Positions 23,003-63,177 of a DNA stretch of 64,000 nucleotides are shown here, one piece after another. The DNA lies in the NCBI GenBank assembly GCA_000004985.1, contig GG738848.1, one strand, 5' to 3'. Numbering within the stretch: position 1 is the stretch's first letter; each line of letters opens with the position of its first letter. Made by a program: the position numbers and the translations under genes. This DNA comes from Naegleria gruberi (Eukaryota). The notes beneath the pieces were generated by a model. That model ran no database searches and was not told where the DNA came from. It worked only from the letters and a program-made list of their open reading frames with translations.

Positions 23003-23075
23003 TGGGGTCTGTGAGGATCGAACTCACGACCTTAGGATTATGAGACCTACGCGCTACCGACTGCGCCAAGACCCC
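23003..23075 (-). tRNA. tRNA-Met, elongator type (anticodon CAT), copy 1 of 3
   Basis: The reverse complement folds as a cloverleaf: ggggtct..agacccc acceptor stem, anticodon loop ctCATaa, T loop gagttcgatcctc. It is identical to the copies at 48226 and 51541. Confidence 0.92.
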
Positions 23076-34449: not shown

Positions 34450-37400
34450 TTATTGTCTCTTGTATTTGATGATATATTCAGGATAGCACTGATATCTATC
34501 ATAGACAATCAATTCTCTATATGAATTACTTGTAGTATTTGATTGGCCAATCACACTATCAAAGACTCTTCTATTCTTTCCAACAATTTCTGGAGGTCTT
34601 CTTTGATTGGTCATTCCTTGGGGTGTGAAATAGACTTGTCTTCCCAAAACAACTCTACACAGGAATATAGTATATTCCTTATTAAGGTCTGGAGTGCAAT
34701 ATTGGTCACTCTTTGAACAATACTCAGCAAAATAAACTCCAGCTCCAAATAAACCACCCAAACTTGCAACTCTTTCATCAAATCCATGTTCTGAAATGGT
34801 TGAAACAAATTCAGGTTTTGTTCCGTGCCATAAGTACTTTTCATTCATTCCACTATTCAATCCAACTGTTTTCATCCATTCGTAGGATTTGCTTGTTTTT
34901 GGCAATAGTTCTGTTTGAACTTGGATTGTCTTGATAGGATCTTGATAAGATGTCAAATGATTCATTCTTGATTTGTATGAAGTGAAAAGTGTTGCATTTT
35001 CAATTCTTGAAACACTTGAAACAATTAATTTGGAATAATTCATTTTCACTTGTTGATCTCTACCAGTTCCAAGTGTTGCAGAATTACATGAAACATTGAC
35101 AATATCTTGAATGGTATTTTTCAAATATTTTGTAACATCCACAATGTAAAATCTTTTAGAATAGGATGTGAATGTATTTCTCTTCCAATAACTTGGCAAG
35201 ACAATATTCAATTGTCTAGATTTGGATTCTTCCAATTCCTTTTCCATGTCTTGTAATTTCTTTTCCTTACTTTTCAATCTGCTAATTTGATTTGTAATTT
35301 CTTCTCTTTCCTTAACACTTTGATTGGTGAATTCCTTTGTTTTCTGTTCAAGTTTCTTGATTTCTTGTGTGAGATTGGATTTATCTTGTTTGAGATTGAA
35401 TTTAACTTGATTCAATTGTTTTTCATATTCCTTCAATTGTTTTGATTGATTTGAAATGGATTTGACTTGTTCTTGAACTTTGATTTCATCCAAGAGAGTA
35501 TCCTTCAAAAAGAATTCACAAACAAGAGCATCTGATGCAAATGGTCTGTCATTTGGATCATTAGTCATACATTGTTGAACTAGAGTATTCAATGATGAGT
35601 AAGTATTCAATTCTTGAGCAGTCATACAATTCTTGATGGTTTTTCCAAATGCAAACATATCTGATTTGAATGTTGCTGATTGACCATTCATTAATTCAGG
35701 TGATAGATAGTCATATGTTCCAGAAACAGAAGTTCTAGTGTACAAATTCATTGTTCTACTTTGAACATCCAAACTAACATCAAAATCTCCCAAAATAATT
35801 GGATATAGACCATTGTTACATTCTCCAACAAATATATTCTCAGGTTTGATATCACAATGAATGACACCTCTGGAATGAATATGTTGAATGGCAATTAATA
35901 CTTGTCTCCATGTTCTTTCCCAAAAAAGTACTTCTAATTTGGTGGATTTTCTTTGTTTTTCAAGAAATTCCTTCAAATTACCATTCGAATAATATGGCAT
36001 TACAATATAAACATTGTTGGTGGAATGGCTATTATCATTAGACATGTAAAATCCTTCAATTTCAATAATATTGTTATGTTTCAACTTTTTTGTAATCTTG
36101 AGTTCTTTTTGTAAACTTTCCAATTTTTTGTTATCCTTGATTGAATATTGTTTAATGATATGTTTCTTATCGTTAATATCAGTTCCAATAAACAAGTGAT
36201 GATTTCCATTCCAATCTTGAATTGGCTTAATTTCTTTGAATAAATCGGCTGACATTTCTTCAATATTCATTGTGGATGCAATACTTGATGACAGGATTGA
36301 CTCAACATTGAATCCAATAGTTTTCAATTGGAGGAACTTCAACTTGATTTCATTTGTCTGTTCAATACATTCCTTGAGTACTTTCTTTTTTTCTTGTAAG
36401 GTTGTTTCCTTTTCTTTAATTTCATCCTCAATTTGCATGGATTCAGTCTTGTTTGTAACATGTACTAATTCATCTCTCAATCCATCAATGTCAAGTTTAA
36501 TAATGGTCAATTCTCTTGTTACTCTTGCTTTCTTTCTTTGTAAAGCAGAATATTGTTCTGTCAATTGCTTGTAATCATTCATAATGTTTACAATATTTTG
36601 CAATTGTTCATGTTGTTCAATAATGAATGGAATGGTTTCTTGAATGAGCTTGTTTCCATTATTAAATTGATTTTGATAATCACAATAAATTTGATAAATT
36701 CCAATTTGAACTAGTTCAGGAAGCAAATTTTTAGTATTAGAAATTGCTTTTTGTAATTCCAATTCCTCCTTTGAAAGCATTTCCATTGCAATCTCTAAAT
36801 TATTTGCAATTCCATTCAAATTAACACTTGTGGCATTATTAATGGATGATGCAATATTTTGTAATTGAGTTGAAATATTTTGTAAAACATTTTTGGATTT
36901 TCCTTCATAATTTGAATCTGTAGTTGAACCATTTAAACTTTTAAGTGTTTTTTGAATTTTTTCAATTGTTAATTCCTTATTTAGGTTATCATTAGCATTG
37001 TAATATTGTAATTGATCTTGATTCAAGTAATTTTGAACAAATTCATCAAATATTTGTAATTTTTCATCTAATGCTTGAATATAGCTATTCAATTGAATTA
37101 AATAATTTTCTGAATTAATTCTTTCTACTATATTTGTAATATTTAACATGTCATTATTAATTAAAGCCACATGTTCAACATTTTCAATATCACACTTATT
37201 ATTCATCAATCTATCATTAATAGTTGAACAACATTCGGATAAAACTCCATTAATTTTCGAATAAACTTGTTGTAGCTCAGTATCAAATGATAATTGATCT
37301 GAAAGTGGAATTACCGAATTCAATTGAGAAGTTACTTGTTTTCTATATTGAGAAACTTTCTCATTCAATGAACACAACTCTGTGAAAACTTGAAATACTG

Positions 37401-38571
37401 AAAGGAAAGTTTGTTTCTTTTCCTTTTCAATTCTTTCCTGTTCAAGTCTTTCGTTTTCAATTCTTTCTTGTTCGAATCTTATTTGATCAGCACGTTCCTT
37501 TTCAAGTCTCTTCTTTTCCAACATTTCTTTTGTAATTCTTTCCTTTTCAATTCTTTCCTTTTCGAGTTTGTCGACTTCTTGTTTAATTATGGAAATTGAT
37601 TTTCCATTAATTTTTAAATTGTTATCAACAACGATATTTGGGGAAGCAAGTAGCAATTTGACAATTTCTAAATTTCCTTTTTGGCAAGCAATAAACAAAG
37701 GAGTGAACTATATATGGTAATATAACTAAATTAATAAATTAAATTTACTTACATTCTAATAAAAATTAGTAAAAAATTTAAATAATAATTGATTGCTTAC
37801 ATTCTATAATGATACATTGAGTATTGAAATATTTCAAATAAATTTTTACTTACATACTAAAATTAATTAATTAAAAAAAATTAATAAAAAATTTTTACTT
37901 ACTCGCTATTTAAATTTTAAATAAAATTAAAAAATAATTAAATACTCACATCCTAATAAACAATATTAAAAAATCAATTAAATTTTACTTACAAACTAAA
38001 TAATATTAACATGTAAATAATAAAATATTATTACTTACAAACTATTATTTTAAAAATTATAAATTTTAAAAATTAAAGCACTTACTCTCTAATAATTATT
38101 TAATACATTTAAAATTAAGTATATTAAGTAATACCTACTTCCTATATAAATATTAAATAAAAAATCGACCATGTAAAATACTTACATACTAAAAATGGAA
38201 TTAAATAAAAAAATAAAATTTTTAACTTACAGTCTATTAAAAATTAAATAAACATTTAAATATAAAACACTCACACCCTACCATCATTAATATATCCAAT
38301 ACATTCACTTCATAACTACTTACACACTAAAAATGTCAACTGTCAACACAATAAATCAAATACTCACACCCTTGTTCACATTAATTTCTGCATAATTCAA
38401 CAATAATTTAACAATTTCCACGCGTCCATTTTCACAAGCATTATACAACATTGTCTTTCCTATTTTTCCATTAGAATATTCATTGATATCTGCTTTTTTA
38501 AACCATTGTTTAAATTCCTTGACATTTCCTGTGGAGGCAGCATCAAGTGCGTTCTCAAAGTTTTTGGACAT
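34450..38571 (-). CDS. Ankyrin repeat / coiled-coil / protein kinase / coiled-coil / PARP catalytic domain fusion protein
   Basis: The first exon is 38368..38571, with ATG at 38571 after an A-run; it encodes ANK repeat 1 (GKTMLYNACENGRVEIVKLLLNYAEINVNKG). The last exon is 34450..37707 and begins FTPLFIACQKGNLEIVKLLL (ANK repeat 2). Kinase motifs are HSRGVIHCDIKPENIF, LGDFDVS and YDYLSPE. PARP motifs are YLWHGTKPEFVSTISEHGFD, GAGVYFAEYCSKSDQY and YRELIVYD, so the H-Y-E positions are all present. The region between the two exons is the mini-intron array listed separately. Confidence 0.88.
37708..38367 (-). repeat. Tandem array of 14 intron-like units (40-50 nt) separated by 13 spacers of exactly 3 nt
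   Basis: Read on the minus strand, every unit is GT[AG]AGT (9 GTAAGT, 3 GTGAGT, 1 GTAGGT, 1 GTAAGC) ... AT-rich ... TAG. Unit lengths are 41, 46, 41, 42, 44, 50, 44, 43, 40, 44, 46, 50, 45 and 45 nt. The 3-nt spacers (plus-strand coordinates) are 38324-26 TGT, 38275-77 GGT, 38231-33 ACT, 38186-88 TAT, 38139-41 GAA, 38086-88 AGA, 38039-41 TTT, 37993-95 TTT, 37950-52 GAT, 37903-05 CGA, 37854-56 TAT, 37801-03 AAT and 37753-55 AAT. The sum 621 + 39 = 660 nt equals the gap between the flanking phase-0 exons. Confidence 0.85.
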
Positions 38572-55677: not shown

Positions 55678-57405
55678 TTAATAATTAAAATCAAAGGGAG
55701 GAACATCATCAAGATGATGACGAGGATTATCAGTCGAACAACAAATAATAGGAAGGAGAGCTTCAAATAGGCTTTCATCTTCATGCATCCAAGCTGGTAA
55801 TAACATTGAATCATCAACCTTCCTATCTTCCTCTTCTTCATCAAATAGGGAAATATTATGGTGTTTCAAGTAATCTTCAAACACCTGACAATCATCCAAA
55901 TGTTCATAAGGTTCCCAAGTCTCATCTGGATAACCCAACCATTGAATATGATACAAGTAGGATTTTCTAGATTGATCACTTCCCTTGAATACTTTTTCAT
56001 GGTCAACAATAACCTTGATGGTATATTCCTCTGTGGTTGGTTTGGGTTCATACTGTTGATATTCCTCTTCATCACTTTCCTCTTGTTTATCATCACCACA
56101 TTCATTGAAGAGGGCATAATTTCTCTTGATAGGTTTTCTCTTCTCTGTGAGGATTAAACTCTGGTCAAGGCAATCATCACCAAGCTTCTTCTTCATTCTC
56201 TGGCTTTGATAGTAGGGATGGTCAGCTTTGAAAGCATTGAGTGCTTGCCTTTGTCCCATTCCACAATAGACCTTGCTGTGTTTGAAATGTGAACGATGAG
56301 CAAAAAAGATGAAGGAAAATCTCTTCTGTTCATAATCATTGGAAGGCTCTTTGGATGATTGAACTGGGTTGTCTCCATCAGTGGGTTCTTGCTTTGGACA
56401 AGTATTGATAAGAGTTGGAGTATTATCATCAGCTTGAGGATTATTCAATGTTGGAGAAGAATTTTCACAAATTTTCACATCATCAACTTCAGTTTGGGAA
56501 GAATTGGCAAGTGGAAAACTTTGAGGACGAGTTGGAGAAACAGCATGACGATACTTGTTAGCTCTCAGCAAGACAACATCACCTGCTTGAATGTGGACAA
56601 GTGTTTTTGGAGTATGTTCATTCACTCGAATCAATTGAAGGGATCCACCTCCAAATTTTCCCATATAGAACATGGCAGAGATTCCCATATCATTTCTGTC
56701 ACGATGATTTGTCTTTGGACGATTGACTTTATCTGTAGACTTATATGAGCCTTGGAATTTCTCCTTGACTGATTCATTTCTTGTTGGAATCATGTTGAAA
56801 CATACAACTGGAGTTTGACCTCTTTCTGTCAATTTGGATAATTTAGCAAATAGTTTGGGATTTGCCAATTCCAAAATATGTTGAAAGGTATCATGTAAGA
56901 GAGCTTGTATCTGTTTCACTTTGGTATCAACTAGCTCAAATCGAAAGCTATCAGCACATTTGTATCCCATTGGCATATTCATTGTCCACCATCCAGAAAA
57001 GAAACTTCCCTTATCAATATCCTTTTCAGTAGCTAACCATTCACTCATCTCCCTACAAAGTTGAGTGCATTCTTCCAATAGACTTGGAGGCAATACTGAT
57101 TTCAACAAGGCCATTTCAACCATTCCTTCTTTTGTGACGATAATAGTATTTGAGGAGATTTCTTTTGGAATGGTATCATTTACACCATATACTGATAGAA
57201 TGGGTTCATTGGATTGAATATTATTTCCTTTAAGGAATTCCCATTCTTTTATCATTTTGTAAACTCTAGTTTTACCAGATTCATCTATGCTTTTCTCATT
57301 TTCCCAACACACTCTTGTTAAGGCTTGAGCTTTCAAAAATTGTTTCTTTCGTCTTCTGTGTTTGGGTTTCTTCTTGTCGTGCTGAGATACATGCAGTGGA
57401 CCCAT
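55678..57405 (-). CDS. TET/JBP-family 2OG-Fe(II) dioxygenase (Naegleria Tet-like) fused to a C-terminal chromodomain
   Basis: HxD motif in KTNHRDRNDMGISAMFYMGKFGGGSLQL; distal His in GDVVLLRANKYRHAV; 2OG-binding Arg strand RFSFIFFAHRSH. All three parallel my recollection of NgTet1 (KPHKDNLD..FYFGNF / GDVLFFKGNEYKHVV / RIGLVYFAH). The chromodomain is EEYTIKVIVDHEKVFKGSDQSRKSYLYHIQWLGYPDETWEPYEHL. Confidence 0.85.
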   Translation of the reverse strand: MGPLHVSQHDKKKPKHRRRKKQFLKAQALTRVCWENEKSIDESGKTRVYKMIKEWEFLKGNNIQSNEPILSVYGVNDTIPKEISSNTIIVTKEGMVEMALLKSVLPPSLLEECTQLCREMSEWLATEKDIDKGSFFSGWWTMNMPMGYKCADSFRFELVDTKVKQIQALLHDTFQHILELANPKLFAKLSKLTERGQTPVVCFNMIPTRNESVKEKFQGSYKSTDKVNRPKTNHRDRNDMGISAMFYMGKFGGGSLQLIRVNEHTPKTLVHIQAGDVVLLRANKYRHAVSPTRPQSFPLANSSQTEVDDVKICENSSPTLNNPQADDNTPTLINTCPKQEPTDGDNPVQSSKEPSNDYEQKRFSFIFFAHRSHFKHSKVYCGMGQRQALNAFKADHPYYQSQRMKKKLGDDCLDQSLILTEKRKPIKRNYALFNECGDDKQEESDEEEYQQYEPKPTTEEYTIKVIVDHEKVFKGSDQSRKSYLYHIQWLGYPDETWEPYEHLDDCQVFEDYLKHHNISLFDEEEEDRKVDDSMLLPAWMHEDESLFEALLPIICCSTDNPRHHLDDVPPFDFNY

Positions 57406-61460: not shown

Positions 61461-62341
61461 TTATTGTTGATGACTTCCGAAGAGAGATTGTGCTCTGGTG
61501 AGTGTCTTGCTCCAAAATAAATTTCTTAATAAACTTCCTTGATTGTCTGATGAAGTGGAAGATGAATCACTTGTCTTGACTGTTGAATTTTTGTCTACAT
61601 TATGATTAGATGCAGTATCAGAAGGAGTTGCAGTAGATTCAGAAGGAGTGACATATTCTTGGCTACTTTCATATTTTGAAAGAATTTTCAATAATTGTTG
61701 AGTTGATTTTGGAGAAATCTTATTTGGAAATTGAATATTGAAATAAATGACCAAATCCCCAAATGTTTCATCCTCTGTTGGCATTCCTTCTCCTTTAACA
61801 CTTTTCAAATGAATTAGAATATTCCTTCATATGAAATCTCTTAAACTTACACATGAAAATAATCTGGAGTAATTAAATTTTGACTATTATCAATTCTAAC
61901 ATCCAACTTTTTCACACCAAATAAATCAATTTGAAAAGAAACCAATTCACTTGTCAATGCTTCTTTCAGAGTAAGAGTATGAACATATTTCAAATGCTCC
62001 TGATCAGGTCCAACTCTCTCCAATTTTAAATCCTTTTCCTTCACTGGTTCCACAATTACAACCAAATCACCAGTTGATGAATTTCTATCCTTTACCTGAT
62101 CATCAAATTCACCTTCTCCTTCAAAAACAATTCTTTTCCGATATTTAAATCCTCTGGGAATTTGTATTTCCCTCTCCACCAACATGGACATGGATTGTCC
62201 TTGAATTCTAACCTTCCGAATGAAGGTAATTAATTTGTTACAACCAAAATATAATTCCCTGAGAGTACATGGGAGAGAAACATAGATATCCAACACAGAA
62301 TTGGTTCGGAATATTGGTGATTCTTCTATTTTAAAATTCAT
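61461..62341 (-). CDS. DnaJ/Hsp40 C-terminal substrate-binding domain protein without a detectable J domain
   Basis: Exons 61851..62341 and 61461..61800. The intron 61801..61850 is 50 nt (GTAAGT..AAG), with phase 2 preserved. CTD motifs are LDIYVSLPCTLRELYFGCNKLITFIRK, GDLVVIVEPVKEKDLKLER, KGEGMP and FGDLVIYFNIQFP. The ATG at 62341 lies only about 155-210 bp downstream of the neighbouring gene's stop codon, leaving no room for a J-domain exon. Confidence 0.7.
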
Positions 62342-62497
62342 AATATTGAATCTTTCTAAAAACAAGTATTTAATGTTTTGGCAATTTTTTTCAATTTTAA
62401 TAATTAATTTTAATAATTTAATCAATTATAATATCAATTAAGAAGTTCTTGAAGGGTTTATCGCGGATATCTAAAAACTCTATTACTGAATCTAATC

Positions 62498-63177
62498 TCA
62501 ATCATTTTCCATCAACCACTTTAACAAGGTTTCCAAAACCTGAACGTATATCAGAAACTTACCTTAAATGGGTCAATCCAGCTTTCCTTTCTAGAAATAG
62601 TACAATAAAACAATTTCATTGACCTTTCCAATTCTGGGTTGTTAAAACGATCTCCCAAGTTCTCCTCAATTTCCAATACTTTCTCTAAATTTCCAACTTG
62701 TCCATCCTTTAATTTATCGCAATGAGTTCCTAAGATAACTATTGGAACATTTTTCACTTGCTCAATTTCCATAATTTCTTTTAAGGTTTCCTTTGCTTCC
62801 TCAAACCTATTTGTGTCTGCACAATCAACACAATAAACAATTCCACTCAAAACATTTGAATGCAAATCAGTAAGGTTATTTTTCCATTCTTTTTTTCCAC
62901 AGGTATATCCACCATAATCATAAAGATGCTTAATTCGGACATGTTCAGTTTCGATCTGTGCTTGTTCTGCATTAATCATTTTCAATAAATTTGTTTTATC
63001 ATATTCGGAATCAATTAACAATTAATTATAGAAAATTTAAGAAACTCTACCATAAACAATAGTTGGAGGATGGACAGAAATTCTGTTATTGAGCAGATAG
63101 CCAAAGATTGTTGATTTTCCTGAATTCGTTGGTCCGAGGAGGATAACATGATCGAGAAAGGAATGAGAGAGACCCAT
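62498..63177 (-). CDS. Arf-like small GTPase with atypical G4 motif; unusual introns
   Basis: ATG at 63177 gives MGLSHSF (Gly2). The P-loop is LLGPTNSGKST. Exon 1 is 63051..63177. An 84-nt intron, 62967..63050, has a non-consensus GTAGAG donor and a CAG acceptor. Using it restores Arf-like spacing (PPTIVY|EQAQIETEHVRIKHLYDYGG). Exon 2 is 62563..62966 and carries THCD in place of NKxD. A GTAAGT donor sits exactly at 62562, and a candidate 23-nt intron 62540..62562 would add VLETLLKWLMEND* (ending at 62498). Without that splice the CDS ends at 62551. Confidence 0.65.

Follow-up and report, generated by a model that had tools for sequence, protein, structure and literature searches.

What does a Naegleria gruberi protein do that appears to carry a TET-like DNA dioxygenase and a chromodomain on one chain, and does the long low-complexity stretch inside its catalytic fold belong to the mature protein? 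The question is raised by an open reading frame (ORF) in a 64,000-nucleotide stretch of contig GG738848.1 (assembly GCA_000004985.1), hereafter the window, which is AT-rich eukaryotic DNA with a GC content of ~33%. A preliminary description, made from the letters of the DNA, had read the ORF at 55678..57405 on the minus strand (575 aa) as a TET/JBP-type dioxygenase fused to a chromodomain. We found this ORF as described, and the motifs quoted from its translation (HRD, KYRHAV, RFSFIFFAH and the chromodomain core YLYHIQWLGYPDETWEPYEHL) all lie where they had been placed. The full-length protein shows 100% identity to N. gruberi XP_002682154.1 (EFC49410.1, NAEGRDRAFT_46005, UniProt D2V161; hereafter D2V161), which databases label "predicted protein" and nothing more; the gene is real, already public and uncharacterised. 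With a probability of roughly 60%, we consider D2V161 to be a heterochromatin-targeted 5-methylcytosine (5mC) dioxygenase of the NgTet family with a methyl-lysine reader and a disordered coding loop. The features on which the argument turns are the following.

55678..57405, minus strand: complete single-exon coding sequence, uninterrupted from ATG to stop, 575 aa plus stop codon
57343..57375, minus strand: basic cluster KKKPKHRRRKK (aa 11-21), which by inspection only looks like a nuclear localisation signal
56221..57153, minus strand: NgTet1-type Fe(II)/2-oxoglutarate (2OG) dioxygenase domain with a double-stranded beta-helix (DSBH), aa ~85-395 including the insert, recognised by sequence and fold matches
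56728..56775, minus strand: smaller insertion specific to D2V161, aa ~211-226 (~16 aa), immediately preceding the HxD strand and of low predicted local distance difference test score (pLDDT)
56689..56706, minus strand: Fe(II) ligands H234-R-D236 together with D239 (NgTet1 D234, which hydrogen-bonds 5mC N4); the HRD motif itself (aa 234-236) is at 56698-56706
56545..56547, minus strand: distal Fe(II) ligand H287 (NgTet1 H279), within KYRHAV (aa 284-289)
56323..56544, minus strand: the 74 residues between H287 and R362 (aa 288-361), ~62-65 more than in NgTet1 and paralogues
56296..56322, minus strand: strand RFSFIFFAH (aa 362-370), with R362 (NgTet1 R289, 2OG C5 carboxylate), I366 (V293), F368 (F295) and H370 (H297)
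55861..56031, minus strand: chromodomain (aa 459-515), with aromatic cage Y461, W489 and Y492 and TWEP at 496-499
55681..55860, minus strand: acidic C-terminal tail of 60 aa (aa 516-575), of low pLDDT

The catalytic core was assigned by sequence and by fold. A phmmer search of the PDB with the whole protein returned NgTet1 (5cg8/4lt5) as the first match (E=4.8e-8), and deletion of residues 294-360 in silico raised the NgTet1 score from 35.5 to 48.1 bits (E=9.6e-12), with the insert-free alignment extending through the Arg strand, where RFSFIFFAH pairs with RIGLVYFAH of NgTet1. Given this gain in score and the continuity of the alignment after deletion, the flanks are homologous to NgTet1 and the intervening residues represent an insertion. 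When an AlphaFold2 (AF2) model was compared with the PDB by Foldseek, NgTet1 (4lt5) again ranked first (E=7.7e-12, TM-score 0.68 on the target), followed by the fungal CcTet (~5e-8) and then by other 2OG oxygenases including human TET2 (5e-4). The full-length model, built from a six-sequence alignment, has a mean pLDDT of 48.9, a low overall confidence, with the DSBH strands at 70-83. Our family profile A1 matched the PDB with E=4e-87; since A1 itself includes an NgTet1-like sequence, this match is not independent evidence. The TET/JBP-type core of the preliminary description is thus borne out, and it is specifically of the NgTet type.

The residues expected of an active enzyme are largely in place. 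In a MAFFT alignment, the Fe(II) triad of NgTet1 (H229/D231/H279) is kept as H234/D236/H287, and the two arginines R224 and R289, which in NgTet1 bind the C1 and C5 carboxylates of 2OG (PMC7854593), are kept as R229 and R362. Three of the four contacts to 5mC are also retained, D239, H370 and F368 standing for D234, H297 and F295, which in the NgTet1 pocket serve N4, N3 and stacking, respectively (PMC7854593, PMC4224472). Of two further positions, V293 corresponds to I366, and A212, near the methyl-binding site, is replaced by C202.

The preliminary description had held that lack of a significant TET_JBP profile hit would refute its reading. Such a hit is indeed missing: the Pfam scan found no match to PF12851 (Tet_JBP) in the full protein, and the insert-free protein, with 14.2 bits (E=0.026), stayed far below the cutoff of 34.9. 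However, when the NgTet1 sequence was rebuilt from its printed PDB alignment and scanned as a control, it reached only 11.9 bits (E=0.14), far below the same cutoff, and three relatives of D2V161 (P0031, P0004 and P0032) gave no score with this profile. NgTet1 is a crystallised TET-like 5mC dioxygenase of proven activity. Since this enzyme itself fails the profile, the missing match is uninformative for the Naegleria clade, and the test, though negative to the letter, is invalid and refutes nothing.

We then addressed the chromodomain. Pfam recognised PF00385 (Chromo) at aa 461-514 (E=1.2e-6). The match scores 28.8 bits where 25.1 are required and extends over positions 1-52 of the 53 in the profile; the core YLYHIQWLGYPDETWEPYEHL lies at aa 483-503. 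Thus a chromodomain is present, as had been claimed, but not as the C-terminal 60 aa: it occupies aa ~459-515 and is followed by the 60-aa acidic tail, in which the Pfam scan recognised no domain. The closest sequences of solved structure are the H3K9 methylation readers CDYL, Clr4, MPP8, CDY1, CDYL2 and HP1 together with the chromodomain of maize ZMET2, and identity to the closest solved chromodomains bound to H3K9me3 or H3K27me3 is 26-37%. Y461, W489 and Y492 fall in the Y/W/Y columns of CDYL, Clr4, MPP8 and 11 other chromodomains drawn from the exhaustive protein search described below, and TWEP is conserved; we take the HP1 cage residues Y24/W45/Y48 to be their equivalents. A separate AF2 model of aa 449-525 (pLDDT 77.6) shows a beta-beta-beta-alpha fold (strands at model residues 15-23, 35-41 and 47-51, helix at 59-67). 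Foldseek matched it to the chromodomains of CDY1, Rhino, CDYL2, CBX1, Chp1 and ZMET2 (TM-score 0.65-0.72, root-mean-square deviation 2.1-2.9 Å), the first five in structures that carry bound H3K9me3 or H3K27me3 peptides, and ranked chromo-shadow domains below these at 8-12% identity. With a domain this small, the Foldseek E-values are modest (~7e-3). By sequence and model, the domain therefore resembles the H3K9me3/H3K27me3 readers of the HP1/CDY class.

When 1.84 billion representative proteins were searched exhaustively with HMMER, only three TET-like relatives came up besides the protein itself: N. gruberi XP_002676528.1 (NAEGRDRAFT_68183, 583 aa; P0003 in that search and P0031 elsewhere), the closest relative with E=2e-26 and ~34% core identity; a 319-aa protein from an ENA metagenome contig (P0004, E=3e-17); and an NgTet1-like sequence (P0023, E=5e-4). 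Outside N. gruberi, none of the same 1.84 billion representatives matched D2V161 in both halves by phmmer. Metagenomes scanned with the protein and, separately, with the alignment gave no relatives; word-indexed homologue searches with the full protein and with the catalytic region returned only D2V161 itself, to which the family alignment added one NgTet1-like sequence; and a search for contigs on record that encode the protein gave no match.

The closest relative, P0031, shares with D2V161 an extension after the DSBH, and its C-terminal domain (aa ~510-583) is homologous to the D2V161 chromodomain (BLASTP E=8e-6), from which we infer that the fusion probably predates their duplication. P0031 differs from D2V161 in its 12-residue His-to-Arg loop and its long N-terminal low-complexity extension. 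Its chromo-like domain is unseen by Pfam and has lost the cage, with a gap, F and I at the positions of Y461, W489 and Y492, so that, judged from the alignment, the canonical reader appears to be kept only in D2V161. Two observations on the relatives stand apart from this comparison. The 7.5-kb contig that encodes P0004 (ENA ERZ25068833, our L001) also encodes a protein with a DYW-deaminase domain and is consistent with an uncultured heterolobosean as its source. The best match of the exhaustive search to the chromodomain by itself, a 544-aa JGI metagenome protein (P0002), combines an ADP-ribosyltransferase exoenzyme-like domain (PF03496) with six tandem chromodomains, an architecture that looks odd and effector-like from its domain content.

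The stretch between the distal His and the Arg strand had been estimated at about 75 low-complexity residues. It measures exactly 74, compared in the MAFFT alignment with 9 in NgTet1 and P0032, 11 in P0004 and 12 in P0031. P/N/S/T/Q make up 54% of it but 28% of the protein as a whole, and its 12 D/E and 5 K/R make it net acidic. In the AF2 model, residues 293-359 have a pLDDT below 50 (31-36) and no secondary structure, and we predict that the insert is disordered. Weak direct repeats of 12-14 nt, spaced ~54-57 nt apart, occur inside it (56393-56505), with the similar peptide motifs SSPTLNN and NTPTLIN, and beyond these the TRF and direct-repeat searches gave just one 10-nt repeat in two copies; these traces may be remnants of a local duplication, and they are too weak to claim tandem duplication as the origin of the insert. 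In DSBH enzymes strand VII opens, close to the metal, with the distal His. Strand VIII begins with the Arg that reaches the 2OG C5 carboxylate, far inside the barrel, and from there it returns to the mouth. By analogy with this topology, F368 and H370 would contact the flipped base at the mouth of the barrel, and the connection between strands VII and VIII would lie at the closed end, away from the DNA-binding face. Such a placement would explain why a long disordered loop is tolerated at this site.

Taken as a whole, D2V161 would be a nuclear Fe(II)/2OG-dependent 5-methylpyrimidine dioxygenase of the NgTet family, which, like NgTet1, most likely flips 5mC out of duplex DNA to oxidise it. The chromodomain of the HP1/CDY class at its C-terminal side would bind methylated H3 (K9me3 and/or K27me3) and would hold the enzyme at transposon heterochromatin. 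Between strands VII and VIII, the ~62-65 additional residues would form a lineage-specific, translated, disordered acidic loop, which probably leaves the barrel away from the base-binding mouth, keeps the active site intact and may serve regulation. N. gruberi has one heterochromatin state, marked by both H3K9me3 and H3K27me3 and found on transposable elements (TEs) only (bioRxiv 10.1101/2025.03.17.643675). Its 5mC is sparse (0.28%) and repeat-enriched, and the intermediate 5mC levels led the authors to suggest possible turnover linked to TET-like enzymes (PMC12344493). Because these histone marks are confined to TEs and 5mC is concentrated in repeats, DNA oxidation targeted by a chromatin mark gains in plausibility, and an oxidase with an intact reader-type chromodomain would be an obvious candidate for confining 5mC oxidation to TE heterochromatin, where both marks and most of the 5mC lie.

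Several observations weigh against this proposal. Nanopore sequencing detected no 5-hydroxymethylcytosine (5hmC) in N. gruberi DNA (PMC12344493). The fourth base contact of NgTet1, Asn147, which hydrogen-bonds 5mC O2, aligns to Met142 in D2V161, with Asn143 next to it at the position of Ser148. This position is also variable in relatives (Lys in P0031, His in P0004), so it does not define the clade as a whole. A spacing of 74 residues between His and Arg is atypical, and it could interfere with 2OG binding. Neither the exhaustive protein search nor the two metagenome scans found an orthologue with the insert. Finally, the full-length AF2 model is of low confidence, and how the loop points with respect to DNA follows only from the general topology of DSBH enzymes.

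Alternative explanations concern each part of the protein in turn. The insert might be an unrecognised in-frame intron or exitron, in which case the mature protein would have the normal short His-to-Arg loop that all relatives have at this site. The preliminary description, on a check that it did not call exhaustive, had reported no in-frame GT..AG pair that would remove the insert cleanly; this was incorrect, as the region contains 40 in-frame GT..AG combinations (for example coding-sequence positions 865-1080, 216 nt), several of which keep both H287 and R362 (for example 919-1080, 162 nt, and 928-1080, 153 nt). The sequence of the insert nevertheless behaves as coding DNA. A codon-usage model trained on 26 long ORFs of the window gave a log-likelihood of +0.574 per codon for frame 0 of the insert (97th percentile of coding windows), whereas values were negative for the other frames (-0.37 and -1.40) and for the intergenic flanks (-0.5 to -0.9). 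Its GC content (38.7%) is no lower than that of the remaining coding sequence (37.1%) and well above that of the flanking intergenic DNA (24-31%). Stop codons number 2 and 11 in the other two frames and zero over the 74 codons of frame 0, for which the chance probability is 0.004-0.013. The candidate donors (GTTTCT, GTCCTC, GTTTTC, GTTGAT and GTGAAA) are all unlike the canonical GTAAGT, and the deposited gene model includes the insert. A DnaJ locus at 61.8-63.0 kb, considered as a split-gene intron control, proved to be two separate genes and so gave no species-specific splice consensus. On codon usage, GC, the open frame and the annotated model, a coding insert is favoured, and an intron, named beforehand as an outcome that would overturn the fusion with its internal insert, is very improbable. 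If translated, the insert might instead have crippled catalysis together with the substitutions, making D2V161 a non-catalytic chromatin reader or scaffold. The unusual spacing, the second insertion of ~16 aa beside the HxD strand, the low pLDDT of both and the failure of our searches to yield orthologues that would show purifying selection fit this possibility. We regard it as improbable, given that all Fe(II)/2OG ligands and most base contacts are retained, which is unexpected after loss of function, and that deleting the loop gives a clean alignment of its flanking strands with NgTet1.

The enzyme could also be active on a physiological substrate other than 5mC, namely thymine in DNA (yielding 5-hydroxymethyluracil) or RNA. 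The authors who found no 5hmC propose thymine or RNA as alternative targets of NgTet enzymes (PMC12344493), and Met142 and C202 replace the O2-contacting Asn147 and A212. By contrast, D239, the acceptor for the cytosine N4 amino group, is conserved as in NgTet1 along with H370 and F368; thymine O4 cannot favourably hydrogen-bond the equivalent Asp in CMD1 (PMC7854593); and N. gruberi 5mC shares its compartment with the histone marks that the chromodomain would read. A different substrate is therefore unlikely in our judgement, if worth bearing in mind. Rather less likely still is that the chromodomain contacts some other protein or a nucleic acid, as the cpSRP43 domain and certain CHD and MSL3 chromodomains do, and does not read methyl-lysine. 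Its segment from GY to TWEP is two residues shorter than in HP1-type domains, the Foldseek E-values are modest, and the homologous domain of P0031 has lost its cage, so divergence does occur in the family. Against this stand the three conserved cage aromatics and TWEP, and the fact that the closest domains by both sequence and fold are bound to H3K9me3 or H3K27me3, with chromo-shadow domains and cpSRP43 ranking lower. An extension of the proposed targeted-oxidase reading, speculative enough that we give it little credence, is that the acidic Ser/Thr-Pro loop acts as an autoinhibitory element, by mimicking DNA or by gating the access of 2OG to its site, and is released when the chromodomain docks on H3K9me3/H3K27me3 nucleosomes or when the loop is phosphorylated. 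If that were true, D2V161 would be a histone-mark-gated DNA demethylase, which would help to explain why bulk 5hmC is undetectable despite eight Tet-like genes.

Several known systems can be compared with D2V161. NgTet1 (PDB 4LT5, 5CG8/5CG9), from the same organism, has the same HxD...H triad, the same 2OG arginines and the same D/H/F pocket. D2V161 differs from it by an identity of only ~24%, by 74 instead of 9 residues from His to Arg, by ~16 extra residues before HxD and by Met at Asn147, and NgTet1 lacks the C-terminal chromodomain and the acidic tail. The mammalian enzymes TET1-3 belong to the same catalytic superfamily and perform the reaction predicted for D2V161, and they too couple a DSBH to a targeting module, CXXC. 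Inside their DSBH there is also a low-complexity insert, exposed on the surface, which is thought to be regulatory and whose deletion raises TET2 activity (PMC6130217). Unlike the mammalian TETs, D2V161 lacks both a Cys-rich domain and CXXC, and where they have a CpG reader for targeting it has a histone reader. The TET2 insert is said, in work by Hu et al. in 2013, to span approximately residues 1481-1843, between HxD and the distal His (H1881). As the TET2 insert would thus precede the distal His and that of D2V161 follows it, the two inserts are analogous and not homologous.

The plant chromomethylases CMT3 and ZMET2 offer another parallel, in that they are DNA-methylation enzymes whose chromodomain reads H3K9 methylation and so links a histone mark with one on DNA, properties that are predicted for D2V161 as well; the ZMET2 chromodomain is among the best matches to that of D2V161 in both sequence and fold. 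Chromomethylases write 5mC at H3K9me2 sites through their chromodomain. They do so with a DNA methyltransferase fold in which the chromodomain is embedded, whereas D2V161 is predicted to oxidise or erase 5mC with a DSBH and has its chromodomain at the C-terminal side. The parallel is a functional analogy only, as the enzymes are not homologous. The chromodomains of HP1, CDY, MPP8 and Clr4 share with that of D2V161 the Pfam Chromo profile, the beta-beta-beta-alpha fold, the three-residue cage and TWEP; the D2V161 domain departs from the HP1 type in being attached to a DNA dioxygenase and in its shorter GY-to-TWEP loop.

Fungal TET/JBP genes are known for their association with transposons. No such association was seen here: the genes flanking D2V161 are ordinary housekeeping genes, encoding a uS9/S16 ribosomal protein, YIF1, a mitochondrial carrier, a short-chain dehydrogenase (SDR) and a GST, and no transposon. 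Weak tblastn matches near 25.2-25.5 kb, considered as a second TET gene in the window, are chance matches, the ORFs there encoding an RNB exonuclease and a BTB protein, and the window contains no other TET gene. Elsewhere in the window, a 1082-aa ORF at 34450-37698 on the minus strand joins a protein kinase (aa ~511-696) to a PARP catalytic domain at the C-terminus (aa ~933-1080), an unusual fusion whose 5' part lies in the window's lowest-GC stretch (36-38 kb, 25% GC). ARAGORN found eight tRNA genes between 16135 and 58949, including four for tRNA-Met(CAT) at 23003, 48226, 51541 and 52103 and a tight Met/Pro/Met cluster at 51.5-52.2 kb. A small-GTPase-like ORF at 62551-63021 (minus strand), separate from the DnaJ_C ORF at 61847-62425, ends in ...PFK, and the very next letters are GTAAGT, which may be an intron donor.

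D2V161 is an uncharacterised member of the known NgTet family, whose founding member NgTet1 has been characterised structurally and biochemically. It is not a new kind of system, and its domain combination, though biologically suggestive, would not surprise a specialist. Eight Tet-like paralogues of N. gruberi were reportedly listed by Hashimoto et al. in 2014, presumably with the D2V161 accession among them, and comparative genomics by the Aravind group is said to have described chromodomain fusions among Naegleria TET/JBP proteins. Among the papers searched, none mentions the accession, or a Naegleria TET together with a chromodomain, and to our knowledge the position of the loop between strands VII and VIII has not been discussed so far. 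The gene is public already, and the present findings leave knowledge of the family unchanged.

NgTet1, on which structural and biotechnological work on TET enzymes is modelled, comes from N. gruberi, and with D2V161 the in vivo role of the Tet-like enzymes of this organism becomes more testable; 5mC there is sparse, repeat-restricted and apparently dynamic (PMC12344493). D2V161 would also be a natural example of a DSBH enzyme that tolerates a long disordered loop between the distal His and the 2OG-binding Arg. Its reader-type chromodomain offers a concrete route by which oxidation may be confined to transposon heterochromatin, and, if this is true, D2V161 would be the erasing counterpart of the plant chromomethylases.

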